Of a stretch of DNA of 64,000 nucleotides, positions 470 to 59,662 are shown piece after piece. The DNA comes from a virus (taxonomy: Duplodnaviria; Caudoviricetes). The notes below the pieces were generated by a model. That model was not told where the DNA came from. It did no database searches and was given only the letters and a program-made list of their open reading frames with translations. The position numbers and the translations under genes are program-made. Every line of letters starts with the position of its first letter. Positions within the stretch are counted from its first letter, which is position 1. The stretch is from IMG/VR virus record IMGVR_UViG_3300028326_000328, positions 1-64,000 of that record. The stretch is one strand, 5' to 3'.

Positions 470-1336
470 ATGAAGGACCAGACCTTTGGTATCGAGATCG
501 AGATGAACGGCATCACCCGGGCGAAGGCCGCGGAGGTCATCGCCGCACACTTTGACATCCAGCCCACCCACGTGGGCGGCTCCTACGACACCTGGGCGGT
601 GTACGACCCGGAAGGCCGGCCTTGGAAGCTGGTCTCGGACGCCAGCATCGCCGGCCCGTACGAGGAGCGCACCGAGCTGGTCAGCCCGATCTGCCGGTGG
701 GCGGACATCGCGACGGTCCAGGAACTGGTGCGCAAACTCCGCCGAGCCGGCGCCAAGGCACACGAAAGCTGCGGGATTCACGTGCACATCGGGCTGGGCA
801 GCCACACCCCGAAAACGCTCCGAAATCTGGTGAACATTGTCAACGCCAAGGAGGACCTGCTGACCCAGGCGCTGCAGATCTCACCGGAGCGCCGCACACG
901 CTGGTGCCAGCCGGTGGACGCGTACTTTCTCGCCCGGCTGAACCGGCTCAAGCCGAAAACCCTTCCGGAGTTCGCCCGGGTGTGGTACGACGACCGGAAC
1001 TGGGAACGCCATGCCCATGAGCATTACGACCCCAGCCGGTACCACCTTTTGAACCTCCACTCGGTGTTCCAGAAAGGTACCATCGAGTTCCGAGCCTTCA
1101 ACAGCACACTCCACGCGGGCGAAATCAAGTCCTTCATTCAACTGAGCATGGCGATTTCCCACCAAGCTTTGGAATCAAGTTCGGCCTCGCCACGCCGCCC
1201 GGAGACGGACAACCCCAAGTACACCTTCCGGTGCTGGCTGCTCCGGCTGGGGTTCATCGGCGACGAGTTCGCGACCGCCCGCGAGCACCTGCTCAAGCAC
1301 CTGCCCGGCAACGCCGCTTGGCGCCAGGCGAGCTGA
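470..1336 (+). CDS. Putative amidoligase (COOH-NH2 ligase type 2, Amidoligase_2-like)
   Basis: FGIEIE N-terminus, ELVSP, CGIHVHIG, TIEFRAFNST motifs; AGGAGG RBS. Confidence 0.88.
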   Translation: MKDQTFGIEIEMNGITRAKAAEVIAAHFDIQPTHVGGSYDTWAVYDPEGRPWKLVSDASIAGPYEERTELVSPICRWADIATVQELVRKLRRAGAKAHESCGIHVHIGLGSHTPKTLRNLVNIVNAKEDLLTQALQISPERRTRWCQPVDAYFLARLNRLKPKTLPEFARVWYDDRNWERHAHEHYDPSRYHLLNLHSVFQKGTIEFRAFNSTLHAGEIKSFIQLSMAISHQALESSSASPRRPETDNPKYTFRCWLLRLGFIGDEFATAREHLLKHLPGNAAWRQAS

Positions 1337-1356
1337 CAGCCGGTTTCAAATCAAGC

Positions 1357-1420
1357 GCATCCGCCTGACGAGGCCCGGTGGCTCCGGGCCGAAACGCGAA
1401 ACGCGTCGCGGGATAGCCGC
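1357..1420 (+). ncRNA. Type I hammerhead ribozyme HHR-B1
   Basis: CTGACGA 1365-71, stem II GGCCCGG/CCGGGCC, GAAA 1391-94, stem III CGCG/CGCG, GTC with cleavage after 1407, stem I CCGC/GCGG; loop TGGCT can pair with AGCCG 1415-19. Confidence 0.9.
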
Positions 1421-1452
1421 ACAGCTATGAAATCATATTGAGGAGGAACACC

Positions 1453-1848
1453 ATGAATTTCTTTGAACAGCAGCTCCGAGCGCTCACCGGCAGGAACACG
1501 GCTTTCAAATCAACCAGCCCAGTCTACGTCGGCCGCGCAGCTTTCCTGACGCTGGACGAGCACATCCGGGCACGCATCGAGTTCGTCACCACCGGCACAG
1601 CAGACAAGTACGAGGCCCTGCAGGTCACCATCCTCAACCGCACCGAGGGCAAGGTCGACACACTCCTGCTTCGAAATCAAGACCACTTCGCCTCCATTCG
1701 CACGCCCGGCGGCGACTTGAAGACCCCACACATCTGGATGTATCAGGGTAAGCCGGACTGGTACGGGCGGCCGACCGATTCGGACTTGAAAGCCCTATCC
1801 AAGGCCGCGCACGACTACATCGCGCTTTTCGCGCCGACCGGCTTTTGA
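1453..1848 (+). CDS. Hypothetical protein (131 aa)
   Basis: ORF with GAGGAGG RBS. Confidence 0.75.
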   Translation: MNFFEQQLRALTGRNTAFKSTSPVYVGRAAFLTLDEHIRARIEFVTTGTADKYEALQVTILNRTEGKVDTLLLRNQDHFASIRTPGGDLKTPHIWMYQGKPDWYGRPTDSDLKALSKAAHDYIALFAPTGF

Positions 1849-1853
1849 ATCAA

Positions 1854-1920
1854 GCCCGCCTGACGATGGGCCGCTGGCTTCGGCCCGAAACCGGCACATC
1901 GCCGGTCGCAGGAAGCCACC
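1854..1920 (+). ncRNA. Type I hammerhead ribozyme HHR-B2 (extra U after core)
   Basis: CTGACGA 1860-66, GGGCCG/CGGCCC, GAAA 1887-90, CCGGC/GCCGG, GTC 1905-07, loop CTGGCTT complementary to AAGCCA 1913-18; one mismatch in stem I. Confidence 0.75.
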
Positions 1921-1968
1921 GGCGGTGCCGGTTCCCAAGGCTCCCAAATCAAAAGGAGGACCACACAG

Positions 1969-2193
1969 ATGTACGAGCGCGAAAATGAACAGGACTTCGA
2001 AGAGGTGTTGCAGGACGGCCTCCGGGAACTGATCGCCCAAGACGACGACTACCGCACAGCGGAGGACCTGTGCTGGGAGAACCTTCGGGTTCAGACCTAT
2101 TCCGAAGACGGCGTGATGACGAACGACAAAGGTCTGGTCATCAGCCTGCCCAACGGCCGCGAATACCAACTGACCATAATCCGGAGCCGCTGA
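1969..2193 (+). CDS. Small acidic hypothetical protein (paralog of 55711..55935)
   Basis: AGGAGG RBS; shared C-terminus GVMTxxKGLxIxLPxGxEYQLTIxRSR. Confidence 0.8.
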   Translation: MYERENEQDFEEVLQDGLRELIAQDDDYRTAEDLCWENLRVQTYSEDGVMTNDKGLVISLPNGREYQLTIIRSR

Positions 2194-2225
2194 CACCCCG
2201 CTTTGAAATCAAGAGGAGGTACACC

Positions 2226-2408
2226 ATGAAGCGCATCTTTGACAAGACCACCTGCTGGAACATCTTTGACCACGCCAAGGACCCCGAGTGTTACTGGGCG
2301 CTACAGCACGCCGGGTTGCACGACGCCGCTCGCACAGCCGCCATCTACCTGACGCTCCGGCACCCGCTCCGGATGATCCCGGTGATCATCGCCTGCGCTC
2401 GCTCCTGA
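2226..2408 (+). CDS. Small hypothetical protein (60 aa)
   Basis: GAGGAGGT RBS before ATG 2226. Confidence 0.65.
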   Translation: MKRIFDKTTCWNIFDHAKDPECYWALQHAGLHDAARTAAIYLTLRHPLRMIPVIIACARS

Positions 2409-2447
2409 ATCAACCCTGACTCCCAAAGTAAAACACGGAGGTTTCAC

Positions 2448-2903
2448 ATGAACTACATCGCTTACGGCTCCAACATGGTCCAGGAACAGATAGCGTACCG
2501 CTGCCCGGACGCCCGGCTCATCGGCATGGGGTATCTGCCCGGCGCACAGTTGGAGTTCTTCCTTCACGCCACCGTAGAGCGCTCTCAAATCAAGGCCGGC
2601 CGGAATCCGGTCCCCACCCGTGTGCCGGTCGCCGTCTGGGAGATCAGCGAGGCCGACGAACAGCGGCTCGACCGCTACGAGGGCTACCCCAGCTACTACA
2701 TCAAGGCGGAGCGCACCGTGTGTATGACGGATGGCTCTGAAATCAAGGGCATGATCTACCTGATGAACCACAAGCGCGTCGCGCCGCCGACCCGGGATTA
2801 CTACGAGGGCATCCGGCGGGCGTACCTGGCGCTCGGGTTCCGCTCTGAAATCGAGAAGGTCTTGAAGCCCGCGCTGCTGCGCAGCCTGGGGCGCAAGACC
2901 TGA
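2448..2903 (+). CDS. Gamma-glutamylcyclotransferase (GGCT/AIG2-like) family protein
   Basis: YIAYGSNM N-terminus, LDRYEGYP motif. Confidence 0.88.
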   Translation: MNYIAYGSNMVQEQIAYRCPDARLIGMGYLPGAQLEFFLHATVERSQIKAGRNPVPTRVPVAVWEISEADEQRLDRYEGYPSYYIKAERTVCMTDGSEIKGMIYLMNHKRVAPPTRDYYEGIRRAYLALGFRSEIEKVLKPALLRSLGRKT

Positions 2904-2929
2904 TGCTTCCGATCGCGTTGGCCACAGCA

Positions 2930-2961
2930 AAAGCCGCTCTCAAATCTGAGGGCGGCTTGTA
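2930..2961. terminator. Probable bidirectional intrinsic terminator between convergent genes
   Basis: AAAAGCCGCTCTC-aaatct-GAGGGCGGCTTGT hairpin. Confidence 0.75.
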
Positions 2962-2995
2962 TCGTGAAGGACTATGATATCTCGGTGGGCGATCG

Positions 2996-3514
2996 TCAGT
3001 GTTGGATCAGGCCGTGGGCGATCTCGATCTCGTCGCCCGTCTTTCGGAACCGCAGCAGCAGCTGGCCCTCGCACACGTTGTAGACCGCCTGGAAGGGCTG
3101 CAGCCACAGGTGCGTCAGCCCCGGGCAGTGCCGGTACGCCTCTGCACGGTATGCTTCGAAATCTTCTTTGCCTTGTGCCCCGAGCCACTGTTCATACAGA
3201 TCCATCAGGTAGGGAACCTGCTCCTTCTGGAGCCGCGCCCACACGAGTTCAGCCGGCAGCGCTTTGAAATTGGAGATGGGCCGGCAGTCTTGGAAGAGGG
3301 CCCACTGGTTAAGTGGCAGCGGATTTTGCATCAGATCCAGCATCGCCTCTGCGGTACCGCAATCGTCGCAGACGTAGACATCCGCGTGACGGCTGAGCGC
3401 ATTACGCGTCACATGGGTGTTCATCACGCCGCTCCCGCACCGTGGACAGGGTAGGCACTCCCCAGCCAGCTGCCGGGCTTTAAAATCAAGCAGCTGTTCC
3501 TTCACATCCTTCAT
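2996..3514 (-). CDS. Zinc-finger (CxxC...CxxC) hypothetical protein; paralog of 57767..58285
   Basis: CPRCG...NALSRHADVYVCDDCG. Confidence 0.75.
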   Translation of the reverse strand: MKDVKEQLLDFKARQLAGECLPCPRCGSGVMNTHVTRNALSRHADVYVCDDCGTAEAMLDLMQNPLPLNQWALFQDCRPISNFKALPAELVWARLQKEQVPYLMDLYEQWLGAQGKEDFEAYRAEAYRHCPGLTHLWLQPFQAVYNVCEGQLLLRFRKTGDEIEIAHGLIQH

Positions 3515-4377
3515 TCAGCGATCTCCTCCCCGACAGTGGTGTGGGCTTCTCTGCGCAGGGCGGCGTACTTTTCCTTGTGCTTTGTCGCGGCAGCGTCGTT
3601 TGGAAACGCCGTATGGCCCTTCAATCCGCCCAGCAGGATGCGGCGCTCTTCTTTGAAATCAGCGCCGCCCATGCCCAGCCGCAGGAGCCATGACCGCGCG
3701 AAGTACTTCTCGTTCTCAGGTTCTTGGACCTGTGCGGTGATGCGGGTCGCTGACTGCGCAGCTTTGATAATCTTGTCCGTCAATAGGCCGTAGGTCGTCC
3801 AGCGTATCGGCTGTTCCGCGTGGAATGGGTAGCGTAGCGTGACGTTGTCGTCGGAATAGCCGAAGCCGTCCAACTCGCCGCGGGCTTTGAAATCAGTTAG
3901 CCGCTGCTGGAACACGACCATGTCTTCCGGCATGTGTTCCTTCAGGCTGTCAATCAGGTTCTCCGATATGAAAAGGTTCCCGGTTTCCGTCATGCGGTTG
4001 ATTAGGTATTGCTTGCTGTACAGCATGTGGATCAGGTTTAAAAGGCTCCCCACCATCATGCCAGGGGCGGGCTCGCTGATTTCCATGTTGTCAATGTCGT
4101 CGGCGCGTTCGGTGGCGGCTTCTGAATCAGCTTCCGGCGCAGGCCGCTCAATCTCCGGTTCCTCCGCCGCCCAGCCGTGATTTTGAAAGAATGGCAGTAG
4201 CGTGGTCCAGGCTTTTAAATCGTCGGTGACGATCGCCGCGTCCTTTTCCACCTTGACCGGGCCGATGCTGTAGGTGCAGCGCGGTACGCCGTCGTAGTGC
4301 GGTTCCAGGTGTAGCCATTCGCCGATGGCCTGGGCGAGCAGTTTACGCTGAGTGATAAGGCCGGTTTCAACTCTCAT
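3511..4377 (-). CDS. Conserved phage protein (often annotated 'virulence-related protein'); paralog of 58282..59088
   Basis: ENEKYFARSWLLRLG...GG...LL..LKGHTAF C-terminus. Confidence 0.75.
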   Translation of the reverse strand: MRVETGLITQRKLLAQAIGEWLHLEPHYDGVPRCTYSIGPVKVEKDAAIVTDDLKAWTTLLPFFQNHGWAAEEPEIERPAPEADSEAATERADDIDNMEISEPAPGMMVGSLLNLIHMLYSKQYLINRMTETGNLFISENLIDSLKEHMPEDMVVFQQRLTDFKARGELDGFGYSDDNVTLRYPFHAEQPIRWTTYGLLTDKIIKAAQSATRITAQVQEPENEKYFARSWLLRLGMGGADFKEERRILLGGLKGHTAFPNDAAATKHKEKYAALRREAHTTVGEEIAE

Positions 4378-4405
4378 GGGATTGCCTCCTTCGCTTTGGT
4401 AGTGA

Positions 4406-4435
4406 CATATACGCTCAATAAGCGATGGAAGTCAA
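4406..4435 (-). promoter_or_regulatory. Putative sigma70-type promoter
   Basis: TTGACT-N18-TATATG upstream of 4377 gene. Confidence 0.6.
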
Positions 4436-4547
4436 GCAAATTATGAGAAACCATAAGAAAGGAGCGGGATTTCTCCCGCCCCGATGGTTCTGACAAGTAT
4501 ACTATACTCCGCGATTCAAGGTGGCGAAAGTGTCTTTTAGTGGCATT

Positions 4548-18457: not shown

Positions 18458-20545
18458 ATGGCTGCAATCAATGATCTGATCAACCAAATTGATAACCCTG
18501 AACTGCGAGAGCGCATTCAGCGGGAAGTAGACCGTATGAACAAGCAGAAAAAATTCGGCCTGGTTTTTGAAGAGCATCTCCCCGAATGCGCCCCGTTGTA
18601 TGATGTTCCCGTGAACAAGGGAAGCTTGGTTGCGCTTAAAACCGGCAAGATGAGCGACAATTATGTTGTGCTAAGGCTAGCCGATGGTCAGGCGATCTGT
18701 TTACCGAAAGCGGGCGGGGAGTCTGCATCGTTTCCTGTGGCGGATCTGGTATCCGTGGCTGAATTCGGTGAGCCGATCTATCCGCACCTCAAGCCCATCG
18801 ACACCGTGTGCAACGCGCCCGACAGCGACCTGTGGCATGTGCTGATCGAAGCGGACAACTACCATGCCCTACAGTTCCTAGAATACCTCTATGCCGGAAA
18901 GGTGGACTGCATCTATATCGATCCGCCGTACAATACCGGTGCAAGAGACTGGAAGTACAACAATGACTATGTAGATGGCAACGACACCTATCGCCACAGC
19001 AAATGGCTGTCAATGATGCAAAAACGGCTTAAGATCGCCAAGAAGCTACTGAACCCGAAGGATTCTGTGCTGATCGTGACCATTGATGAAAAAGAGTATC
19101 TGCATCTTGGATGCTTGCTGGAGGAATTATTCCCAGATGCAAAAATGCAAATGATATCAAGCATTATTAACCCAAAGGGAACAGCTCGGACTAATGAATT
19201 TAGCCGAGTAAACGAATTTATATATTTCGTAATGATCGGCGATTATACTTTGTCCCGAACAGGAAGTGATATGCTAACCCAAGATGTGTCTCAAGACACA
19301 AATGTAAGATGGCGTGGCTTTCCTCGAACGGGGCGAAAAGGGTTGCGGCCAGTTAATCCTGGTTCATGGTATCCTGTTTATTTTAACTGCAGCGATGACT
19401 CTTTTCATTCTGTTGGAAATGCGGTTTACGAAGGAGCAAATATTCCGGTTGCTCCAGAAGGCACTTATGAAATTTGGCCTCCTGTACGAGATGGTGAAGA
19501 GTATAGTTGGGGAATGGTTCCGTCAACCTTTCGCAAGCTTTATGAAATCGGAGCTATTAAATTTGGAAAACCCACGAAAGGTAAGGGGGCTTCTATATCC
19601 TACCTTACGAACAATCAACTGAAACAGATTGAAGACGGAACTATTAAAGTAATTGGGCGAGATGCCAATGGTTCTCTGGAAGTTGTTTATGTAGACGATT
19701 CAAAAACAACAGCGCCTAAAACCCAGTGGAACATGACGGCTCATGAAGCTGGCGCATATGGAACCAACATAATTGGCTCATTGATACCGGGTAGACGGTT
19801 TGCCTTTCCGAAGTCTTTGTATGCAGTGGAAGATGCAATTCGTTTTTTTGTAAAAGAAAAACCGTGTGCATTAATCATCGACTTTTTTGCCGGTTCTGGC
19901 ACAACCCTTCATGCCGTCAACCTTCTCAATGCCGAGGACGGCGGGCATCGTCGATGCATCATGGTGACAAACAACGAGGTGTCCGACAATGAAGCCAAGT
20001 CGCTGACGGCACAGGGCTATCACCCCGGCGATCCCGAATGGGAAAGACTCGGCATTGCTCGTTACGTCACATGGCCTCGCACAGTCTGTTCCATCGTAGG
20101 CCATGATGTGAACGGTCAGCCGCTCAAGGGCGAATACATCGGCAGCAAGATTCCCATGGCGGACGGCTTCAAGGCGAACGCTGCCTTCTTCAAGCTGAGC
20201 TTCTTGAACAAGACCAGTGTTGCACTGGGTCGTCAGTTCAAGGAGATGCTGCCGACGCTGTGGATGAAAGCCGGTTCGCACGGGGCATGCCCCACGCTGG
20301 AAGATAGAGAAACGCCCACCATGCTGGTGTTGCCTGAAAACCGCTTTGCCGTACTGACGGTGGAATCCGCCTTCAGCGATTTTGCGGAACAGGTCAATGC
20401 TCTCCCCGAAATCCAAACGGTGTACATTGTCACCGATTATGAAGCCGGATACTGCGCCATGGCGAAAAACCTGAATGCGCCGCACACCTTCCAGCTTTAT
20501 CGCGATTACTTTGATAATTTTAGAATCAATACAGGGAGGTACTGA
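18458..20545 (+). CDS. mod: Type III-like R-M DNA adenine methyltransferase (Mod)
   Basis: YIDPPY motif IV, DFFAGSGTT motif I, central variable region. Confidence 0.88.
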   Translation: MAAINDLINQIDNPELRERIQREVDRMNKQKKFGLVFEEHLPECAPLYDVPVNKGSLVALKTGKMSDNYVVLRLADGQAICLPKAGGESASFPVADLVSVAEFGEPIYPHLKPIDTVCNAPDSDLWHVLIEADNYHALQFLEYLYAGKVDCIYIDPPYNTGARDWKYNNDYVDGNDTYRHSKWLSMMQKRLKIAKKLLNPKDSVLIVTIDEKEYLHLGCLLEELFPDAKMQMISSIINPKGTARTNEFSRVNEFIYFVMIGDYTLSRTGSDMLTQDVSQDTNVRWRGFPRTGRKGLRPVNPGSWYPVYFNCSDDSFHSVGNAVYEGANIPVAPEGTYEIWPPVRDGEEYSWGMVPSTFRKLYEIGAIKFGKPTKGKGASISYLTNNQLKQIEDGTIKVIGRDANGSLEVVYVDDSKTTAPKTQWNMTAHEAGAYGTNIIGSLIPGRRFAFPKSLYAVEDAIRFFVKEKPCALIIDFFAGSGTTLHAVNLLNAEDGGHRRCIMVTNNEVSDNEAKSLTAQGYHPGDPEWERLGIARYVTWPRTVCSIVGHDVNGQPLKGEYIGSKIPMADGFKANAAFFKLSFLNKTSVALGRQFKEMLPTLWMKAGSHGACPTLEDRETPTMLVLPENRFAVLTVESAFSDFAEQVNALPEIQTVYIVTDYEAGYCAMAKNLNAPHTFQLYRDYFDNFRINTGRY

Positions 20546-20547
20546 CA

Positions 20548-23352
20548 ATGAGGGTTGAATTATTTCCATTTCAGAAAAAGGCAGTTACCGACCTGCGCAT
20601 AAAACTTGCAGAAGCACTGGGCAGCTATCATCGCACTCACATTCCGCAGGTGGTTTCTCTGCAGGCGCCGACCGGCTCCGGCAAAACCATTATCATGGCT
20701 GCGCTCGTAGAGGACATATACTTCGGAACCGAGCAGTTTACCGAGCAGCCAGAGGCAATTTTCGTCTGGTTGTCAGATTCTCCTGAGCTTAATGCACAGT
20801 CAAAGCAGAAATTCGACCTGAAGGCGGATAAGATTCGCTTTGGGCAGTGTGTCACCATTGAGGACGAGTCCTTCGACATGGAGATGCTGGATGACGGGCA
20901 TATTTACTTCCTCAACACGCAGAAGCTCGGCAAGGCTGGGAATCTGGGAAAGCACTCCGACACCCGGCAGTACACTATCTGGGAAACGCTAGCTAACACC
21001 GTACGGGAAAAGAGCGACCGGCTCTATTTCCTCATCGATGAAGCGCATCGTGGCGCACAAGGACGCGAGGCCGGGAAGGCCACCTCCATCATGCAGCGCT
21101 TTCTAAAGGGAAGCCCGGAAGTGAAGCTGCCACCCATGCCCGTGGTTATTGGCATCAGTGCTACGGCGGAGCGCTTCAACAAGCTGGTCGGCGACACCAC
21201 CTCCACCCTACAGAAGTGCATCGTCTCGGCAAATGATGTGCGCACTTCCGGCTTGCTGAAGGATCGCATCGTCATCACCTACCCGGACGATCCGCAGCGG
21301 AACAACGAAATGGCGCTCTTGCAGGCGGCCACGGACGAATGGCGCAAGAAGTGCGAGCATTGGTATCAGTATTCCTATGAACAACACTATGCGCAGGTGA
21401 ACCCTATCTTCCTGATTCAGGTGCTTGCAGGCAGCGGCAAAGCCGTGTCCGACACGAAACTCGATGATGTCATTGCAAAGGTCGAGGAGCGCCTCGGCAC
21501 ACGCTTCCGCGAACATGAAGTGGTGCACACCTTTGGCTCTACGCCTGCGCTGACCATCAACGGTTTGCAGGTGGAGCGCATCGAGCCTTCTGAGATTTCC
21601 GAGGACAAGCGCATCCGTGTGGTGCTGTTCAAGGAGAACCTCTCCACGGGCTGGGATTGCCCTCGTGCCGAAACGATGATGTCCTTCCGTCATGCAGAGG
21701 ATGCCACCTATATTGCGCAGCTTCTTGGGCGCATGGTGCGCACTCCGCTGCAATGCCATATCCTCGTTGATGATTCGCTGAACGATGTGCGGTTGTACCT
21801 ACCGTATTTCAACCAGAATACGGTAAAGTCCGTCATTGATGAGCTGCAAAGCACTGAAGGTGGCGATATTCCGACTGTAATCGATGGGGAATCGCTGGAA
21901 CAGCAGGTGTATGTGTCGTGGACAGTGCATACGCAGCACCACAGGGAAGCGCAACAGGTTCCTGGTCAGATTAGTTTCTCCAACTTGACAACTTGTGCTG
22001 TGACGCCTTTTCAGCCCGCCACACAGCTAGGACAAAACAGGCTGTCAGGAGATGCGCCGGTTCACCATACAGAGGAACCGTATGTGCCTAATCCTGTGCA
22101 TCCGCAGACCGAGCCGACTCTGACAGTTCCCGTCAAGCCCACCTCCGCGCGCACAGAAACATCTCCTGCCGGTGTTCAGACGCGCATGGCGGGTGCAGGC
22201 ATCGACCGGGAAGCGATTACGAAGTTCATCAACGATCAATCCCTGCTGACATATATGGTGCGCTCAGTAAAGATCAATAACTATATGAAGTCCCTACTGA
22301 ACCTTGCCAGTCTGCTGACGCGCGAAGCCATCTTCCCGGCTGCGACTGATGAGGTTAAGGCCGATGTTGTGGATATGATCCGCCATTACGCAGAGGAGCT
22401 GCGTTATACGGGAAAGTATAAAGAATTAGCCAGTCAGGTGCTGTCCTTCAAGCTATCTGTTCGCGTTTTTGACGTGTTCGGCGAATCTCTGGACAACGGT
22501 ATGGCGCAGGGCTTCTTGGCTGCCTCCGAGAGCGATCTGGATCGTCAGCTTCGCGCTGCAGATGCCCGGATGAGCGGTTATGGCTTCCCGAATTGCTATG
22601 GGCAGCAATATTTCAACGAGGACGATCCCTCCGCCTATAAAATCGACTGCATCCTTTTCGCTGCAGACGATGACTGCATCGCCACAATGAACCGCTACGC
22701 GGAGAAGAAATTCCATGGTCTCAATGATAAGTATCGCAAGTATATCGTTGGTAAATCCGAAAAGTGCCGGAAGCAGTACAGCGACATCATCGCGGACGGT
22801 GATGTGATCAGTAAGCATAGCTTCACCCTGCCGGAGACAATCAGCGTGAAGAATGAAAAAGACGGTAAAGAATACGATAATCATCTGTTCGCAGATGAAA
22901 ATGGAGTTGCCATTATCAAACTGAACGGTTGGGAAGATGACCTGATCTCCGAAGAGGAAAAGCGGCCTGACTTCGTGTGCTGGCTGCGGAATCCGCCTCG
23001 CGTATCGTGGTCGCTGTGCATTCCGTATGAGATCAACGGCGAAGTGAAGGCCACATATCCCGATTTCCTGATTATTCGAGGCGATCCACAACTGAACTAC
23101 GTCGTGGACATCCTCGAACCACACAACCCGGAATTCAAGGATAATCTCGGCAAGGCGAAGGGCTTTGCTAAGTATGCCGAAAACGAGCCTTGCATTGGAC
23201 GCGTGCAGTTGATTCGCACAGGAAAGGATGCCGCAGGAAAAACGCGTTTCAAGCGTCTTGATCTGTCGCATGGGGCTGTTCGTGACAAGGTGCTGAAAGC
23301 GCAGAATAACGACGAGCTAGACCATATTTTAGAAACAGATGGTATTTTCTGA
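20548..23352 (+). CDS. res: Type III-like restriction subunit (Res), DEAH helicase plus nuclease
   Basis: APTGSGKT, IDEAH, GWDCPRA, C-terminal YPDF...ILEPH. Confidence 0.85.
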   Translation: MRVELFPFQKKAVTDLRIKLAEALGSYHRTHIPQVVSLQAPTGSGKTIIMAALVEDIYFGTEQFTEQPEAIFVWLSDSPELNAQSKQKFDLKADKIRFGQCVTIEDESFDMEMLDDGHIYFLNTQKLGKAGNLGKHSDTRQYTIWETLANTVREKSDRLYFLIDEAHRGAQGREAGKATSIMQRFLKGSPEVKLPPMPVVIGISATAERFNKLVGDTTSTLQKCIVSANDVRTSGLLKDRIVITYPDDPQRNNEMALLQAATDEWRKKCEHWYQYSYEQHYAQVNPIFLIQVLAGSGKAVSDTKLDDVIAKVEERLGTRFREHEVVHTFGSTPALTINGLQVERIEPSEISEDKRIRVVLFKENLSTGWDCPRAETMMSFRHAEDATYIAQLLGRMVRTPLQCHILVDDSLNDVRLYLPYFNQNTVKSVIDELQSTEGGDIPTVIDGESLEQQVYVSWTVHTQHHREAQQVPGQISFSNLTTCAVTPFQPATQLGQNRLSGDAPVHHTEEPYVPNPVHPQTEPTLTVPVKPTSARTETSPAGVQTRMAGAGIDREAITKFINDQSLLTYMVRSVKINNYMKSLLNLASLLTREAIFPAATDEVKADVVDMIRHYAEELRYTGKYKELASQVLSFKLSVRVFDVFGESLDNGMAQGFLAASESDLDRQLRAADARMSGYGFPNCYGQQYFNEDDPSAYKIDCILFAADDDCIATMNRYAEKKFHGLNDKYRKYIVGKSEKCRKQYSDIIADGDVISKHSFTLPETISVKNEKDGKEYDNHLFADENGVAIIKLNGWEDDLISEEEKRPDFVCWLRNPPRVSWSLCIPYEINGEVKATYPDFLIIRGDPQLNYVVDILEPHNPEFKDNLGKAKGFAKYAENEPCIGRVQLIRTGKDAAGKTRFKRLDLSHGAVRDKVLKAQNNDELDHILETDGIF

Positions 23353-23371
23353 TTGAATACCGGAATGTCAA

Positions 23372-23530
23372 ATGGAGAGTGAGTGCGCCTTGCAGCAGGT
23401 GATCTTTTCCATTATGTTGGACAACATGGAGCTGTTCAAGCAGTTTCAGGACAATCCTTCCTTTTAGAAGTGGCTGTCCGATATGGTGTTCAACATGACG
23501 TATCAAGAAAATGCGCGCAAGGGGAACTGA
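23372..23530 (+). pseudogene. C-terminal remnant of a type I restriction subunit (HsdR-like) with in-frame TAG
   Basis: Manual translation MESECALQQVIFSIMLDNMELFKQFQDNPSF*KWLSDMVFNMTY resembles HsdR C-termini. Confidence 0.65.
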
Positions 23531-23559
23531 CCAGAAACGTCGATGGAATTTGAAAGGGA

Positions 23560-24705
23560 GTGACACGTGTGGTTAACAACTTTTTTCAGGAGCAGCGCGA
23601 ACAATCAATGATAAAGGCTAGAATTGTTGCGAAGTACTTTGATGCCTGGGCAAAAGTAATACTTGCCACACAGAAGAAGTATCCTCAGCACGTCCAAAGA
23701 ATGGCGTATATTGATTTGTTTGCAGGGCCAGGCAGGTATGATGATCAGAGCAAATCCACCCCCTTGTTGGTTTTAGAAACCATCCTCAGCAGCCCTGAAC
23801 TTTCAGGAAGAATGGTTACGTGGTTTAATGATAAGGATCTAGCAAATATTGAGAGCCTCAAAACTTCAATAAGTCAACTCCCCGGCATAGAAAGGCTCAA
23901 GTACCCTCCAGCGTTCTATAATGAAGAGGTTGGAGACGAAATTGCTGAAATGTTTAGTCGAATAAAGCTCGTCCCAGCATTTTTCTTTGTCGATCCGTGG
24001 GGGTATAAAGGGCTTTCGCTCAACTTAGTGTCCTCGATTATCAAAGATTGGGGATGTGATTGTGTATTTTTCTTTAACTATAATCGCGTGAACATGGGCG
24101 TCAATAATGATGCTATAAGGACTCATATGGTATCTTTGTTTGGTGAAGAGCGTCTAGGCACACTTCAACAAGAGTGCTTCGGCAAAACACCAGACGAACG
24201 GGAAATGATTGTTGTGCAGGCGTTATGCGACTCGTTGCGTCAGAATGGGAGCCGATTTGTTTTGCCATTTAGATTTCGTAATGATAGTGGAACTCGAACA
24301 AGCCATCATTTAATATTCTTGAGCAAGGACTTCCTAGGATACGATATTATGAAAGGAATTATGCATAAGGAATGTTCTGAAAATAACGAGTGCGTTTCAA
24401 CATTTGAATACAACCCACGAGATGCTCATTTCAGGCAAGGTTCCATCTTTGATTTATTATCTACGCCGTTAGAAAAATTGATCGGCATGCTTTTGTCGGA
24501 GTACGCGGGTAAAACGATCGACTTTATGCGCCTGTACGAAGAGCATAGTGTTGATAGGCCATACATTAAGAAGAATTATAAAGATGTTCTTAGGAAACTA
24601 TATGATGAAGGGAAAGTTGCGGCGAAAGATCCCACAACAGATAAGCAGCCGAAGAAAGGTACTTTTTCTGATAAAATGCGAATTACGTTTGGAGATATAA
24701 AATGA
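23560..24705 (+). CDS. tcmP: Three-Cys-motif partner protein TcmP (methyltransferase-like fold)
   Basis: S.IK..IV.KYF.AW, YIDLFAGPG, FFVDPWG; coupled to DUF5131 gene. Confidence 0.82.
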   Translation: MTRVVNNFFQEQREQSMIKARIVAKYFDAWAKVILATQKKYPQHVQRMAYIDLFAGPGRYDDQSKSTPLLVLETILSSPELSGRMVTWFNDKDLANIESLKTSISQLPGIERLKYPPAFYNEEVGDEIAEMFSRIKLVPAFFFVDPWGYKGLSLNLVSSIIKDWGCDCVFFFNYNRVNMGVNNDAIRTHMVSLFGEERLGTLQQECFGKTPDEREMIVVQALCDSLRQNGSRFVLPFRFRNDSGTRTSHHLIFLSKDFLGYDIMKGIMHKECSENNECVSTFEYNPRDAHFRQGSIFDLLSTPLEKLIGMLLSEYAGKTIDFMRLYEEHSVDRPYIKKNYKDVLRKLYDEGKVAAKDPTTDKQPKKGTFSDKMRITFGDIK

Positions 24706-25439
24706 GCGTAACGAAGATTGAATGGACAGAAAGAACATGGAACCCCGTCACTGGTTGCACAAAGATATCGGCGGGATGCGCGCATTGTTACGCTGAGATA
24801 ATGGCCAATCGGCTTAAGGCAATGGGGGTCGAGAAATATTCAAATGGCTTTTTGCCGACGGTCCACGAAGATGCTCTTGATGAGCCGATTAGTTGGAAAG
24901 CTCCACACACGATTTTTGTTTGTTCAATGGCAGACTTGTTCCATGAATCCGTCCCTTTTTCGTTTATCGATAGAGTAATGGATACAATTCAGAAAGCCAC
25001 ACACCATCGTTATCAGATACTTACAAAACGCGCCGGAAGAATGGCTGAGTATTTTGGAAATAATACTGTGCCATCCAATGTCTGGTTAGGCGTTACAGTA
25101 GAGGATGTAGAGGCTAAGTCAAGAATTGAAATCCTTAGAAATGTAAAAGCGTCTGTTCGTTTTTTATCTTGCGAACCTCTTTTAGAGGACTTAGGCAGAC
25201 TTGATTTATCGGATATCAACTGGATCATTGTTGGAGGTGAAAGTGGCGTTCAAGCACGTCCTATGAGCCCGGAATGGGTTATGTCACTACAAGCCCAGGC
25301 CAATGATACAAACATACCATTCTTTTTTAAACAATGGGGGACGTGGGGATCTGATGGGATTAAGCGAAGCAAAAAAGCTAACGGTAAGCTCCTTGATGGT
25401 AAAATTGTGCAAGCTATGCCGCCATTTAATGTTGTGTAA
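24702..25439 (+). CDS. DUF5131 (phage Gp37/Gp68, three-Cys radical-SAM-like) protein
   Basis: IEWT..TWNPVTGCTKISAGCAHCYA, FVCSMADLFH, GGESG, FFFKQWG. Confidence 0.9.
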   Translation: MSVTKIEWTERTWNPVTGCTKISAGCAHCYAEIMANRLKAMGVEKYSNGFLPTVHEDALDEPISWKAPHTIFVCSMADLFHESVPFSFIDRVMDTIQKATHHRYQILTKRAGRMAEYFGNNTVPSNVWLGVTVEDVEAKSRIEILRNVKASVRFLSCEPLLEDLGRLDLSDINWIIVGGESGVQARPMSPEWVMSLQAQANDTNIPFFFKQWGTWGSDGIKRSKKANGKLLDGKIVQAMPPFNVV

Positions 25440-53342: not shown

Positions 53343-53400
53343 CGGGTTTCCTCCTTCAACAGCAACAGCCGCCCAATCGGACGGCTGATTTTTCGTTTTG

Positions 53401-53505: not shown

Positions 53506-53690
53506 TTTCGCAGAGCAAAGCGCGAAAGCCGACCACGGCGGTGGACTTTCGCACGGCGAAGCGCGAAAGCCGACCGCGCCGCTGGGACTTCTGCGAAGCA
53601 AAGCGCAAAACCCACCACGGCGGTGGGACTTCTGCGAAGCAAAGCGCAAAAGCCGACCGCGCCGGTCGGGCTTTCGCAGAGCAAAGCGGA
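53506..53690. repeat. Tandem array of about 4.5 imperfect 41-42 bp self-complementary repeats
   Basis: Units TTTCGCAGAGCAAAGCGCGAAAGCCGACCACGGCGGTGGAC and variants. Confidence 0.85.
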
Positions 53691-53816
53691 GAAGCGTTTT
53701 CGGGAAAAAACGGGCGGCGGGCGGGCGAAAACGGGCCGCGCGAAAGGCGCTTCCTATATAGCGCGTGGGGCCGCCGCCGTATCAGAAAAGACGCAAAAAC
53801 GTCGCCGTTAGTTATC

Positions 53817-53846
53817 TTGCGTTTTTGCGCCGCCGGAGTGATGAAT
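53817..53846 (+). promoter_or_regulatory. Putative promoter of accessory operon A
   Basis: TTGCGT-N18-ATGAAT with GAGTGATGAATG, like the promoters at 59117 and 59636. Confidence 0.55.
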
Positions 53847-53914
53847 GGGTCGCGGCAAAAAACGCCGCCGCCGCGGGCGGGAAAAACCGCCGGGCGCGAA
53901 AGGGGAACCCCGCC

Positions 53915-54353: not shown

Positions 54354-55220
54354 ATGAAAGACCAGACATTCGGCATTGAGATTGAAATGAACCACATCTC
54401 TCGCGCCAAGGCGGCGGAGGTCATCGCCGCGCATTTCGGCACACGCGTGGAATTTGTCGGCGGCACCTACGACACCCGGTGTGTGCCCGACGGGCAAGGC
54501 CGCAAATGGAAGGTGGTGTCCGACGCCAGCATCGATGGGCCTGCCAACGAGCGCACGGAATTTGTCAGCCCCATCTGCCGGTGGGAGGACATCGAAACGG
54601 TACAGGAATTGGTGCGCAACCTCCGCAAGGCGGGCGCGCGACCCGACCCCAGCTGCGGCATCCACGTCCACATCGGGCGCGGGCGGCACACGCCCAAAAC
54701 CCTTCGGAATTTGGTCAACTTGGTCAACGCCAAGGAGGACTTGCTTACGCTGGCTCTCCAAATCTCGCCCGAGCGCCGCGAGCGGTGGTGCAAAAGAATC
54801 GACCCCGACTTCCTCGAACGCCTGAACCGCCGCAAACCGCAAACCGACGCCGCCTTCGCCCAGCTTTGGTACAACACCTCCGGCTGGCAATCACACGCCA
54901 ACCAGCACTACGACCAAAGTCGCTACCGGCTCCTAAATCTACACAGCGTTTTCCAAAAGGGCACGGTGGAATTCCGCGCCTTCAACGCGACGCTCCACGC
55001 GGGCGAGGTCAAGACCTACATCCAGCTTTGCATGGCGATTTCGCACATGGCTTTGGAATCAAGTTCGGCCTCCCCGCGCCGCCCGGAAACGGACAACCCG
55101 AAGTACACCTTCCGGTGCTGGCTCCTCCGGCTGGGGTTCATCGGCCCGGAGTTTGAAACCGCCCGCCAGCACCTGCTCAAATACCTGCCCGGCAACGCCG
55201 CTTGGAGACAGGCGGGCTGA
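54354..55220 (+). CDS. Putative amidoligase (paralog of 470..1336, same length)
   Basis: FGIEIE, CGIHVHIG, TVEFRAFN. Confidence 0.88.
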   Translation: MKDQTFGIEIEMNHISRAKAAEVIAAHFGTRVEFVGGTYDTRCVPDGQGRKWKVVSDASIDGPANERTEFVSPICRWEDIETVQELVRNLRKAGARPDPSCGIHVHIGRGRHTPKTLRNLVNLVNAKEDLLTLALQISPERRERWCKRIDPDFLERLNRRKPQTDAAFAQLWYNTSGWQSHANQHYDQSRYRLLNLHSVFQKGTVEFRAFNATLHAGEVKTYIQLCMAISHMALESSSASPRRPETDNPKYTFRCWLLRLGFIGPEFETARQHLLKYLPGNAAWRQAG

Positions 55221-55260
55221 CGCCCGACCGGCACAGCTTCCAAATCAAGTGTGCTGTGCC

Positions 55261-55321
55261 GCCCGCCCGACGAGGCTGATTGGCCATCAGCCGAAACGTG
55301 CCACACGTCGCGGGAAGCCAC
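55261..55321 (+). ncRNA. Type I hammerhead ribozyme HHR-A2 (CCGACGA core variant)
   Basis: CCCGC-CCGACGA-GGCTGAT-tggcc-ATCAGCC-GAAA-CGTG-cca-CACG-TC(55309)-GCGGG-AAGCCA. Confidence 0.8.
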
Positions 55322-55368
55322 CGGCAGTGCCGGTACCAAAGCCCCCAAATCAAGCGAGGAGGTACACC

Positions 55369-55602
55369 ATGAACGAACGTATCCACCAAGAAATCCGAGG
55401 ACTCCTGAATCACATGCGCCAAGAGCCATTCAATACGCGCGAACACGCCCTCAACATCGCCGCAATCGGTGGCATGCTCACAGCCATCAGGTTCATCACC
55501 GGCGAAAGCTGGGCGATGGTCAACGCAAATCGCGCGACCCGGATGCACATCCAGAACGAAAGGACGGGCGAGTGCATCGAGGGGGATGTCGAAATGTTCT
55601 GA
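55369..55602 (+). CDS. Small hypothetical protein (77 aa)
   Basis: GAGGAGGT RBS. Confidence 0.72.
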   Translation: MNERIHQEIRGLLNHMRQEPFNTREHALNIAAIGGMLTAIRFITGESWAMVNANRATRMHIQNERTGECIEGDVEMF

Positions 55603-55607
55603 AATAA

Positions 55608-55680
55608 GCCCGCCTGACGAGCAGCCCGGTGGCTCCGGGCCGAAACGCTCCGAAATCAACCGGAGCATCGCGGGAAGCCC
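55608..55680 (+). ncRNA. Type I hammerhead ribozyme HHR-A3 (ATC triplet, bulged stem II)
   Basis: CCCGC-CTGACGA-G(ca)GCCCGG-tggct-CCGGGCC-GAAA-CGCTCCG-aaatcaac-CGGAGC-ATC(55669)-GCGGG. Confidence 0.7.
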
Positions 55681-55710
55681 AGCTTCCAAATCAAACGCAG
55701 GAGGTACACC

Positions 55711-55935
55711 ATGAACGAGCATGTGCAAAATCAGGATTCCATCATCACCGAGGAAATCGTAGAGGAAGCCCTTGACGGAATCCTAAACGGGGAATGGGAC
55801 ACAGAAAACAGCGCCCTCGAAGGCGCTCGAACCCGGACATTCCAACAGGCGGGCGTCATGACCTACAACAAGGGGTTGATCATCACCTTGCCCGACGGCA
55901 CAGAGTACCAACTGACCATCGTCCGCAGCCGGTAA
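55711..55935 (+). CDS. Small acidic hypothetical protein (paralog of 1969..2193)
   Basis: AGGAGGT RBS; conserved C-terminus. Confidence 0.8.
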   Translation: MNEHVQNQDSIITEEIVEEALDGILNGEWDTENSALEGARTRTFQQAGVMTYNKGLIITLPDGTEYQLTIVRSR

Positions 55936-55937
55936 GA

Positions 55938-56002
55938 CGCCCACGGGGACACAGCTTAGCACAGGACGAAACGCTCCTAACCGGGAGTGTCGCGGGAGCC
56001 GC
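55938..56002 (+). ncRNA. Degenerate hammerhead remnant
   Basis: GAAA-CGCTCC-taacc-GGGAGTG-TC-GCGGG retained; CTGANGA core and stem II lost. Confidence 0.45.
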
Positions 56003-56033
56003 AAGCTTCCAAATCAAGAAGGAGGCACACGTC

Positions 56034-56336
56034 ATGACGATGGAGGAAAAATGGAACGCCGCTCATGCCCTTACTGACCTCGCCGCTCGCAAGCTCGCCT
56101 TCGCCATTGTACAAACCGAATGGGAAATCGAGGAGGCCACCAAGCGCCTCTAAGACGCGCGCAAACGCGTCGAGGATTCCGCCACCCGGTCCAGTTCTGC
56201 AATGTACGCAGACAGCATCGAAGGCTGGCTGCGCGATTGGCGAAACGAGTACACGCGCCTTGCGGAAAAGAACCGAACGTTGGAGCTCCTGAATCACCTT
56301 GCCCGCGACGCCAAGCCAGAGGCCGCCCGCTCCTAA
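56034..56336 (+). pseudogene. Hypothetical coiled-coil protein interrupted by in-frame TAA (56151-56153)
   Basis: AAGGAGG RBS; same frame continues DARKRVEDS...AARS* to 56336. Confidence 0.6.
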
Positions 56337-56342
56337 ATCAAA

Positions 56343-56392
56343 CTGCCTGAAGATGGCCTTTGGCACAGGCCGGAACGCTCTTCAATCAAGGA
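56343..56392 (+). ncRNA. Degenerate hammerhead remnant
   Basis: CTGAAGA-t-GGCCT-ttggcac-AGGCC-GGAA; no clear NUH or stem I. Confidence 0.35.
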
Positions 56393-56402
56393 GGGACACA
56401 TC

Positions 56403-56621
56403 ATGAAGATCACCACCGCAGCACAGTGCTTTGATATCCTCGACTGGTTCGACGATCCGCTTTACGACTACCTCGCACACAACCTTGTCGCCAAGCTCGA
56501 CGGCGAGGAACGCATCGCCCGAGCGCTCCCACATCTGATCGAACATACCACCGCGCCTGTTGCGGCTCACGCGGATAAGGCGAACGCTTACCCGGTGGAG
56601 TTTTGGAATCAACCCGCCTGA
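56403..56621 (+). CDS. Small hypothetical protein (72 aa); stop codon lies in ribozyme core
   Basis: AGGAGGG RBS; TGA of CTGACGA is the stop. Confidence 0.7.
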   Translation: MKITTAAQCFDILDWFDDPLYDYLAHNLVAKLDGEERIARALPHLIEHTTAPVAAHADKANAYPVEFWNQPA

Positions 56622-56678
56622 CGAGTGCTGCATGGCTCGCAGCCGAAACCGCCCGCTTGGGCGGTCGCGGGAAGCTAC
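56612..56678 (+). ncRNA. Type I hammerhead ribozyme HHR-A4
   Basis: CCCGC-CTGACGA-G(t)GCTGC-atggctc-GCAGCC-GAAA-CCGCCC-gctt-GGGCGG-TC(56666)-GCGGG-AAGCTA. Confidence 0.9.
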
Positions 56679-56710
56679 AGCTTCCAAATCAAACGCAGGA
56701 GGTTTACACC

Positions 56711-56857
56711 ATGAATAGGATTGTCATCAAGGTCTGGCGGGGATTGGTTTCCGAAGTCTACGCAAGCGACGCCAACACAGAAGTCATCGTTATAGATGAG
56801 GATTGCGACGAGGTTCTACTCGCAGACACAGACTTGCCCGCACATCAGGTTTACTGA
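56711..56857 (+). CDS. Small acidic hypothetical protein (48 aa)
   Basis: AGGAGGT RBS before ATG 56711. Confidence 0.65.
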   Translation: MNRIVIKVWRGLVSEVYASDANTEVIVIDEDCDEVLLADTDLPAHQVY

Positions 56858-56887
56858 GCTTACAAATCAACCAGAGGAGGTATTCGA

Positions 56888-57094
56888 TTGAAAAGCATTT
56901 GCATCCGCGTGGAAGATGAAATACATCGCCAGTTGAAATGTGTTCTGCTGTATCGAGGTTCAACTCTTCAGGACTTCGTGATCGGACTAATCGAACGCGA
57001 AATCGAACGCGAGGCGAGCGAAATCGCGTACAACGACACAACCGGCGAGGCAACAAGGCTCTTTCAGCGCGTCGGCATTCCTACCAAGCTGTGA
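56888..57094 (+). CDS. Ribbon-helix-helix-like DNA-binding protein
   Basis: KSICIRVEDEIHRQLK...TLQDFVIGLIE pattern; AGGAGGT RBS with TTG start. Confidence 0.6.
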   Translation: MKSICIRVEDEIHRQLKCVLLYRGSTLQDFVIGLIEREIEREASEIAYNDTTGEATRLFQRVGIPTKL

Positions 57095-57112
57095 AATTAA
57101 GGAGGAAACACA

Positions 57113-57553
57113 ATGAAGTACATCGCTTACGGTTCCAACATGGTCAAGGAGCAAATGGACTACCGCTGCCCGGACGCCAGACTCATCGGCACCGGATACA
57201 TCAAGCAGGCCCGCTTGGAATTCTATCTCCACGCCACCGTCAAACGCTCCCAAATCAAGGACTCGCGTGTGCCGGTGGCGGTGTGGGAGATCTCGGAGGT
57301 AGACGAACGGCGACTCGACCGGTACGAGGGGTTCCCGGATTACTACATCAAGGAGGAATGGCCGGTCACCCTGTCGGACGGCTCCGAAATCAAGGGGATG
57401 ATTTACCTGATGAAGCGCATCCGCAAAGCGCCGCCGAACATGGATTACTTCCAAGGCATCTTCAACGCCTACGAGGACTTGGGCCTTGAATCGGAAATCA
57501 ACAGCGTGTTGATGCCCGCGCTTAGCCGCAGCCTCCGGCGCAAGAAGCGCTGA
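57113..57553 (+). CDS. Gamma-glutamylcyclotransferase family protein (paralog of 2448..2903)
   Basis: YIAYGSNM, LDRYEGFP. Confidence 0.88.
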   Translation: MKYIAYGSNMVKEQMDYRCPDARLIGTGYIKQARLEFYLHATVKRSQIKDSRVPVAVWEISEVDERRLDRYEGFPDYYIKEEWPVTLSDGSEIKGMIYLMKRIRKAPPNMDYFQGIFNAYEDLGLESEINSVLMPALSRSLRRKKR

Positions 57554-57573
57554 CGCACAGCCCCAAACGAGAT

Positions 57574-57604
57574 AAGCCGCTCTCCATCGAGGGCGGCTTT
57601 TTTG
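57574..57604 (+). terminator. Intrinsic terminator of accessory operon A
   Basis: AAGCCGCTCTC-catc-GAGGGCGGCTTTTTT. Confidence 0.8.
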
Positions 57605-57766
57605 CTCTGGAATTGGGCCGACGTTGGCGCGTGTCGGGCCTTGGAATCGGCGGTCGGACAAACCCTCGACCAAGGCCCGCAAGGCCGCACGTGGGGCGAA
57701 CGTGGCGGCGACGCGGGCAAAGAAAAAGCAGCCGCACGGGCTGCTTTGGAATCGAGCGGCGGAGGG

Positions 57767-59605: not shown

Positions 59606-59662
59606 GGGAATACCTCCATAGTAATTTTTACGTGATATCAATCACTCTGAAGGGCTTCAAAG

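Follow-up and report, generated by a model that had tools for sequence, protein, structure and literature searches.

In this study, we analysed the first 64 kb (called the window below) of one 72,330-bp virus record, IMG/VR record IMGVR_UViG_3300028326_000328, and found that a short motif with the core GCTNNNRAATC forms a real, strongly selected, conserved and previously undescribed array of cis-elements which has a clear genetic partner. The motif is locked to one strand of a phage module in which an accessory operon runs against a convergent gene pair, and its key correlates, which go beyond an earlier sequence-only reading of the same DNA, are the inversion of this operon and an obligatory gene, znr, for a 172-residue zinc-ribbon protein. 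We propose that the array is a polar cis-element for plus-direction transcription or its transcripts, which would be read in an orientation-specific manner by a factor of the module, most probably the znr product, with a negative effect, and we assign this reading a probability of roughly 0.45.

Of the 39 core matches in the window, all but one are on the plus strand; 6.0 matches are expected, with a maximum of 14 in 100 shuffles. The whole record holds 40 plus-strand sites and 1 minus-strand site. For the longer 13-mer GCTYYNRAATCAA, the window contains 19 plus-strand matches and none on the minus strand, where 0.13 are expected. Thus, the enrichment and strand bias that the sequence-only reading had proposed to check by counting are both present. 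The core sites are grouped in two plus-strand clusters, B (817 to 4221) and A (54929 to 58659), and the region from 5 to 53 kb, where the motif had been judged rare by eye, contains only two, at 22983 (+) and 44517 (-), which is the chance level. In cluster B, which had been described as a dense plus-strand array of about 20 copies at 817-4223, we count 18 core sites, whose coordinates agree exactly with those given in that reading, at 817, 1166, 1424, 1501, 1668, 1841, 1940, 2200 and 2401 in the first half and at 2581, 2734, 2842, 2936, 3153, 3477, 3884, 4118 and 4211 in the second, together with three degenerate (near-cognate) copies at 1346, 3262 and 3648. Cluster A has 17 core sites, and an extra one lies beyond it at 60114, in a gene for S-adenosylmethionine (SAM) synthetase.

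When the instances were aligned, GCT and AATC were invariant, positions 4-5 were pyrimidines, position 7 was a purine and AA was preferred after AATC. The flanks showed no conservation across all aligned instances, so the motif is a short autonomous element and not a piece of a longer repeat. Successive copies are 21-1000 bp apart (median 182), and most are within genes. No helical (10.5-bp) or regular spacing was found, and the array thus differs from the regular, tandem, compact and non-coding arrangement of iterons or partition sites. As the sequence-only reading had noticed, the sites lie between genes as well as inside genes of either strand, and those in minus-strand genes appear as recurring DFKA and DFEA peptides. 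We also find DSEA and DLKA, and the sites in plus-strand genes occupy all three reading frames. The statement of the earlier reading that the motif is not a known site is supported. Other candidates for the motif were tried and rejected. The flanks contain no conserved hexamers for a sigma-70-like promoter, the TTR of an IHF-like WATCAA-N4-TTR site is absent, and a guide RNA, in which the Y/R degeneracy would reflect G-U wobble to a fixed partner, found no candidate partner sequence on either strand.

The motif is selected as a nucleotide sequence. Codon shuffling, which the sequence-only reading had named as its own test, did not reproduce the density: when synonymous codons were shuffled within each gene (2000 shuffles for each gene set), 7 sites were observed against 0.44 expected in the plus-strand genes of cluster B, 5 against 0.76 in its minus-strand genes, 4 against 0.51 in the plus-strand genes of cluster A and 3 against 0.48 in its minus-strand genes, and the observed count was reached in at most 1 of 2000 shuffles on both coding strands. 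The paralogous amidoligases of the two clusters share identical peptides (LRNL, LLNL) that are encoded by the motif in one paralogue and by synonymous codons without it in the other. In p288, an amidoligase-like 288-residue protein whose gene overlaps znr, the peptides that host the motif, D-[FLS]-[KE]-A (DLKA, DFKA, DFEA, DSEA and others), lie at non-homologous positions between array-bearing lineages, often within variable linkers, and the alignment shows none of them in p288 orthologues of array-less phages. The signal has therefore reshaped the protein encoded on the opposite strand. Together with the strand lock in distant relatives described below, the codon shuffles and the reshaped protein uphold the earlier proposal of a directional signal that is independent of the coding strand.

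Comparison of more than 100 related loci showed that the co-occurrence of the array with the inverted operon and znr is exclusive, since arrays were found only where both are present, in both search directions and on different phage backbones. Twelve loci encoding p288 in bacterial genomes (Clostridia, Christensenellales and unclassified Bacillota) have 4-28 sites each, all on the strand opposite p288 (147:0). Among 80 IMG/VR loci with p288 relatives, arrays are present in only 11 (strand ratio 207:8), namely those in which the genes for amidoligase and GGACT, an AIG2-like gamma-glutamyl cyclotransferase, are inverted relative to p288, a methyltransferase (MTase) gene and terS, and znr was found in exactly these array-bearing loci. 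About 65 loci with a co-directional or absent operon have neither array nor znr, and the array-less loci include some whose p288 is equally diverged and whose MTase and TerS are 80-87% identical. A profile search with the znr family gave 1384 representatives, many of which are the N-terminal zinc-ribbon domain of about 80 residues alone. Homologues down to an E value of 5e-18 adjoin a convergent GGACT operon with the same motif, and all diverged homologues with enough flanking DNA converge on a GGACT/amidoligase operon whose sense strand carries the motif (24:0, 6:0, 7:0, 6:0, 5:0 and 3:0). These diverged contexts include a short-form homologue of 80 residues (N-terminal only) and a locus, L108, on a different backbone with Thy1, dUTPase and MT-A70 and without p288. 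De novo, unbiased counting of gapped k-mers recovers the same motif, as GCT...AAATC, at a ratio of 16:0. Two short contigs with znr homologues, L106 (2.4 kb) and L110 (0.9 kb), contain no sites, and L106 also has no convergent operon within reach. In the reverse direction, an 18-nt pattern from sites near Shine-Dalgarno sequences was searched across IMG/VR and gave 14 arrays, 14 of which have a convergent znr, in one case seen only once the locus was extended. Samples from gut, digester and wastewater show the module to be widespread among Bacillota prophages. In each of five host genomes (2.8-4.3 Mb) the motif has 1-21 copies, clustered in prophage modules with scattered singletons elsewhere; a host-wide polar signal of the Chi or KOPS (FtsK orienting polar sequences) type was ruled out, because outside the prophage modules the motif is at chance level in these five genomes.

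In the reading that we favour, the array would be the cis-acting half of a self-contained and portable phage module with a backwards-facing accessory operon. The motif would mark plus-direction transcription, that is, the mRNAs of the operon and the read-through antisense transcripts into the convergent genes, and the znr protein, most probably, would read it in an orientation-specific manner. Such reading would arrest, terminate, cleave or translationally silence plus-direction transcripts, the effect being most plausibly a negative one; the accessory operon would be timed or shut off, and antisense read-through over p288, znr and the replication genes would be cleared, which would shield the convergent genes from antisense interference. 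The density profile, computed over 15 loci, has the shape expected of plus-direction transcription, with a sharp edge near the 5' end of the operon and a decay along operon transcription, through the back-to-back terminators and into the convergent genes. The motif density is 3.94 per kb in the operon, 3.11 per kb in p288 and znr and 0.32 per kb in the genes further upstream of this pair (the last about tenfold above chance), but 0 in the 11.4 kb from the amidoligase start to the MTase gene and 0 in the 29 kb beyond; on the opposite strand it is about 0.04 per kb. That the motif occurs only with the inverted operon points to a problem created by convergent transcription. As for the proposed reader, the znr protein is a zinc ribbon without a helix-turn-helix (HTH), and its predicted model has a mean predicted local distance difference test (pLDDT) score of 84.6 over the whole chain and 94.9 in the C-terminal domain. 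Its Pfam matches are weak, generic zinc-ribbon ones, and in the Atlas it is found only among hypothetical clusters.

Several observations weigh against this reading. First, the sites continue at near full density past the strong intrinsic terminator at 57574-57599, up to 6-9 kb further, and substantial read-through would be required. Second, the first 1-1.5 kb of the operon (the Ala-rich open reading frame (ORF) and the 5' part of the amidoligase gene) is free of sites, which is odd for a signal on that transcript. Third, the natural flanks keep the motif no more accessible than shuffled flanks do, in either RNA sense. In addition, searches with Foldseek and VIA gave no convincing fold match for the whole znr protein or for its C-terminal domain (best Z 6.2, generic alpha/beta). 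The density profile is matched nearly as closely by a mirror model, in which the motif would be read on minus-direction transcripts running antisense across the operon, and the co-occurrence of inversion, znr and motif could derive from few evolutionary events.

The constant polarity of the motif across genes of both orientations would also suit a DNA-level signal for a translocating or replicative machine, such as one-strand priming sites for a primase, a polar fork barrier or a signal read by the terminase on its approach to the genome end near the packaging genes. The sharp edge of the array stands beside the MTase/terminase block with its 41-bp tandem repeats, zinc ribbons are the template-recognition element of primases, and the Atlas neighbour score of the znr protein for a primase zinc-binding domain is 0.87, which serves as a lead only. 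However, the motif travels between phage backbones with the module, and this argues against a signal of a particular replisome or terminase: a signal of that kind should not travel with accessory genes, and yet module and motif are also found on the backbone of L108, which has different replication genes. Moreover, relatives with the same terminase and MTase and without the inverted operon have no sites, the tight spacing to Shine-Dalgarno sequences is left unexplained, and helical or regular spacing is absent. For these reasons, we regard a replication or packaging signal as quite unlikely.

Returning to the reading as a signal in transcription, we divide the odds about equally between recognition of the motif as nascent RNA or non-template DNA and recognition as duplex DNA, by analogy with the roadblocks formed at mycobacteriophage stoperators. 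The former is favoured by the Shine-Dalgarno spacing and by the embedding of the motif in RNA structures. About 70 of 390 sites are located 0-6 nt upstream of the Shine-Dalgarno sequence of a plus-strand gene, which places the first base of the motif 25-31 nt before the start codon, and nearly all genes after the amidoligase gene have such an abutting copy, either intact or degenerate. The copy at 55647 forms stem III of a hammerhead, and a minority of the copies near a Shine-Dalgarno sequence use their GCUYY half to pair with an RRAGC(C) that precedes it; the variant at 1424 (AUAGC/GCUAU) is compensatory, and G-U pairs are seen in the plus sense. The latter is favoured by the stoperator precedent of 13-bp asymmetric sites, by sites that go on beyond the strong terminator and by the finding that RNA accessibility is not selected. 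From the sequence-only view of a "DNA-level" signal, the nucleotide-level and directional part is retained, while action on DNA goes further than the evidence does, as reading of RNA or non-template DNA is at least as likely, because about one fifth of the sites abut a Shine-Dalgarno sequence and some lie inside plus-sense hairpins or ribozyme stems.

The same start-proximal copies would be expected of a pure 5'-untranslated-region element, for example an mRNA-stabilising hairpin with an A-rich ribosome standby site, like the start-associated sequences (SAS) of Cluster K mycobacteriophages, with the intragenic and antisense copies being incidental. The Shine-Dalgarno-abutting copies of nearly all plus-strand genes after the amidoligase gene, and the pairing of some GCUYY halves with its compensatory variant, speak for such an element. 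We nevertheless find it very doubtful, since about 80% of the sites are away from start codons, the antisense copies in p288 and znr exceed the codon-shuffle expectation and have reshaped the proteins, and the tendency to form an upstream hairpin is weak overall, with a mean of 4.7 of 7 pairs compared with 4.3 at random positions. Around all sites taken together, no common local RNA fold was found, and the A/U-rich half alone is unpaired, as its composition predicts.

The spacers between the plus-strand genes contain ribozymes with type I hammerhead cores (CUGANGA, stem II, GAAA, stem III, GUC, stem I). In Rfam, no hit in the window covers the motif at the gathering score or at E<=10, and the hammerheads of the window are below the reporting thresholds; one sub-threshold Hammerhead_1 hit was obtained in a relative (L004), for a neighbouring ribozyme. 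Our regular-expression hammerhead scanner is too strict to survey the distribution of these ribozymes, and the arrays L010 and L005 have no hammerheads. In hammerhead-less arrays (L010:7500-10100 on the minus strand; L005, L029, L030 and L103), another conserved structured unit occupies the hammerhead position in the spacers before genes. It consists of a hairpin, UCCGG UUGA GGGCU..AGCC UUCNC CCGGA, followed by GCCACAGGCU and the motif, permits alternative pairings, has no Rfam match and, judged from its sequence, may be a ribozyme of another kind or a regulatory RNA.

A further alternative in which the motif acts as RNA is antitermination of the boxA type. Here, the plus-sense RNA element would recruit host NusB/S10, perhaps together with the znr protein in the manner of lambda N with boxB, and would make the polymerase resistant to termination and to Rho; the signal would need to be reloaded after each ribozyme cut of the RNA tether. 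The commonest variant of the motif, GCUUUGAAAUCAA, resembles the boxA consensus of Bacillus subtilis (AUGAUCUUUGAAA) and of Escherichia coli (UGCUCUUUAACA) (PMC13753749). It is also similar to rrn leaders and spacers of Christensenellales, e.g. GAUCCUUGAAAACUG and, in one case, ACCUUGAAAAAUCAAU; a motif copy follows almost every hammerhead, and the sites go on past the terminators. Like the motif, boxA and nut signals (NusB-S10; lambda N) are short and strand-specific and have a GCUCUUU-like 5' half, and they act as single-stranded RNA on the transcribing polymerase. However, they are usually single or in two copies, close to the promoter in an untranslated leader, whereas we find about 20 dispersed copies after an empty first 1-1.5 kb and a dependence on a phage zinc-ribbon gene. 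In addition, boxA is U-rich where motif positions 4-7 are degenerate, and the invariant GCU and AAUC appear to differ from the rrn boxA of the host order. The rrn leaders of the host order, (G)AUCCUUGAAAACUG, share 8 of 11-13 positions with the motif, several of them degenerate; the five host assemblies of the loci yielded no 16S/rrn operons, and the comparison draws on leaders from other members of the order. The likeness involves short, low-complexity strings, and a host factor would leave the strict dependence on znr and on operon inversion unexplained. We therefore consider antitermination unlikely.

The sequence-only reading had also suggested a protein-coating or loading array, a silencing site and a methylation or restriction decoy, none of which gained support. 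The last two belong to a wider idea, that of a decoy or evasion array against host defence, in which the motif would serve as a target of restriction or methylation, bind a xenogeneic silencer or protect entering DNA in the manner of Chi. It is known that Type III and Type ISP enzymes are defeated when asymmetric sites all point the same way; in addition, the genes nearby include those for a ParB-methylase and a SAM synthetase, and the operon looks like an anti-defence locus. However, evasion accounts for the orientation bias and not for the local enrichment of about 80-fold, phages of different host orders retain the motif although it is lacking from the host genomes outside such prophages, and relatives with the same methylase carry no array. 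To our knowledge, a site of 11-13 nt with a 3-nt degenerate centre fits no usual type of restriction-modification target. Accordingly, this idea has hardly any probability in our view.

The array belongs among the dispersed, orientation-locked regulatory sites of phage genomes, and its closest analogues are stoperators and SAS, from each of which it departs in one defining feature. The stoperators of Cluster A mycobacteriophages (L5 gp71; the TipsytheTRex repressor) are asymmetric 13-bp sites, dispersed in more than 20 copies over genes and short intergenic gaps, at which a phage protein bound as a monomer halts elongation in one orientation only, and their orientation is tied to the direction of transcription (PMC9283540). 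Our motif is likewise asymmetric, about 13 bp long and dispersed over intergenic and genic positions, with 18 and 17 core sites in the two clusters. However, stoperators are genome-wide and flip with gene direction, whereas the motif is confined to one module and keeps its orientation across the convergent junction, so that it reads in the sense direction of the operon genes but against p288, znr and metK. The stoperator reader is a repressor with an HTH and a stoperator domain that binds duplex DNA, while the candidate partner here is a zinc ribbon, and the hosts, Bacillota, are of a different phylum. SAS and their extended form (ESAS) are also asymmetric 13-bp sequences in one orientation, immediately upstream of many unrelated start codons and in half of the cases with an upstream inverted repeat, and their reader and function are likewise unassigned (PMC3203893). 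SAS contain the ribosome-binding site (RBS) and almost all are associated with starts, whereas about 18% of our sites are so associated and the rest lie inside genes of both orientations. The genomic setting matches that of clustered hammerheads in prophage accessory operons, several of which flank single genes of variable identity; that work was on the ribozymes and does not describe dispersed motif copies locked to a strand (Perreault et al. 2011, PMC3088659).

At the Shine-Dalgarno-proximal copies, what the znr protein might do would resemble the action of two other phage proteins. T4 RegB, a sequence-specific RNase, makes early mRNAs inactive at their ribosome-binding sites, and Mu Com, a small protein with a zinc ribbon, binds mRNA immediately 5' of the RBS. 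No sequence or fold similarity of the znr protein to either of them was seen beyond the generic zinc ribbon.

There is a reasonable chance that the array represents a new way of strand-selective transcript control. More specifically, we tentatively propose, as a possible form of it, that the znr protein reads a one-strand tag of 11-13 nt and arrests or destroys all transcripts of one direction (operon mRNAs and antisense read-through) while sparing those of the opposite direction, within a portable module of ribozyme-punctuated and probably anti-defence genes. If so, an operon inserted backwards in a one-way genome would have a dedicated direction-specific signal with its own reader, which would be a new mechanism for convergent transcription, and one short tag with one protein of 80-170 residues could be a compact, orthogonal and orientation-dependent switch. 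The module also carries hammerhead-flanked variable small genes, whose regulation has been unexplained since 2011. Whatever the mechanism, the motif can be used as a cheap sequence marker for such accessory or anti-defence islands, and it is a clear example of a non-coding signal that reshapes proteins of the opposite strand.

The two clusters correspond to modules A and B, which are diverged paralogous copies of one module, and in appearance the record is a tandem of two related prophages or the product of an assembly join. In each module, the plus strand encodes the Ala-rich ORF, the amidoligase, several small ORFs and the GGACT cyclotransferase, with hammerheads in the spacers, and the minus strand encodes p288 and znr, which overlap by 4 bases and converge on the operon. 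All other genes in both phages are on the minus strand, so that the accessory operon is an inverted island. The amidoligase and p288 share a C-terminal domain of about 60 residues (E/D-N-x-KY-x2-R-x-WLLRLG-x-G-x2-F-x3-R-x2-LL-x2-L-x-G-x2-AF), encoded at 1140-1336 (+) and 3511-3750 (-) in module B and at 55030-55220 (+) and 58282-58520 (-) in module A; as PHROGs also groups p288 with amidoligases, the module carries two paralogues on opposite strands.

In module B, the first motif-bearing gene of the operon is the amidoligase gene (470..1336, +; Pfam Amidoligase_2, 1e-64; PHROG 2443), with sites at 817 and 1166. It is followed by a predicted type I hammerhead-like ribozyme, B1 (1359..1414, +), read from the sequence and a scan for core and stems (core CUGACGAG at 1365-1372, GAAAC, and GUC at 1405-1407), which is flanked by motif copies just upstream (1346) and downstream (1424). 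Three small ORFs (1453-1848, 1969-2193 and 2226-2408, all +) each have the first base of a motif 26-29 nt ahead of the start codon, and the stop codons of two of them fall within motif copies (1841 and 2401); a second hammerhead, B2, is at about 1854-1920 (+). The last gene of the operon encodes the GGACT cyclotransferase (2448..2903, +; Pfam GGACT, 1.5e-10; PHROG 2520) and has internal sites at 2581, 2734 and 2842. Between the convergent units, a hairpin at 2925..2962, to whose stem and loop the copy at 2936 contributes, would be a terminator when read on the minus-sense RNA. On the minus strand, znr (2996..3514) has antisense sites at 3153 (DFEA) and 3477 (DFKA), the latter at the conserved N-terminal LLDxKARQ, and p288 (3511..4377; PHROG 2443, 2e-25) has antisense sites at 3884 (DFKA), 4118 (DSEA) and 4211 (DLKA) and the degenerate copy at 3648. 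A promoter-like element, TTGACTT ... TATATG, lies upstream of p288-znr (4395..4450, -), resembles those at 59121 and 59640, probably serves this pair and coincides with the dense right-hand edge of the array. The start of the record (1-70) is homologous to 53845-53915, exactly the putative transcription start of operon A, and the promoter of module B and all DNA to its left are therefore missing.

In module A, the accessory operon (54354..57553, +) contains the amidoligase gene (54354-55220), six small ORFs and the GGACT gene (57113-57553), with four to six hammerhead-like units in its spacers. Back-to-back intrinsic terminators of the convergent units (57574-57599, +; 57747-57725, -) separate it from znr (57767-58285, -) and p288 (58282-59088, -), which have antisense sites at 58029, 58418 and 58649, and the SAM synthetase gene is upstream of this pair. 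A 39-codon ORF at 56035-56154 stops at TAA, and an in-phase-looking continuation at 56202-56336 ends within a motif copy; together they may be a split or decayed accessory gene. Members of a promoter family, TTGNNN ... TTTAGAGTGATWWAT, are found at 59121-59132 (-), 59640-59651 (-), about 4400-4450 (-) and about 53815-53845 (+), and precede p288 and an HTH/zinc-finger regulator and probably also the accessory operon. In co-directional relatives (L041, L047 and L059), a copy of this family stands before each accessory gene, where ribozyme and motif stand here.

The record further encodes TerS, TerL, portal, tape-measure and tail proteins, serine recombinases and the ParB-methylase, with a replication block of DUF2800, PolA, VapE-primase and SNF2; the leading region of a conjugative element was ruled out, given a virus record with TerS, TerL, portal, tape-measure and tail genes. 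The stretch that separates the ParB-methylase gene from the divergent accessory operon contains, at 53506-53688, 4.4 tandem copies of a 41-bp unit, each with a small hairpin, and the array ends short of this stretch; judged from the sequence, the copies might bind a regulator or act as an origin or a packaging site. A terminator-like hairpin at 53366-53387 (-), directly upstream of the RBS of the ParB-methylase gene, where the packaging genes begin, suggests that the late genes may be reached by read-through or antitermination. Finally, a cargo block of lower GC content (45-49%) at 18458-25439, between two phage segments, contains two large plus-strand ORFs (695 and 934 residues) and further genes.

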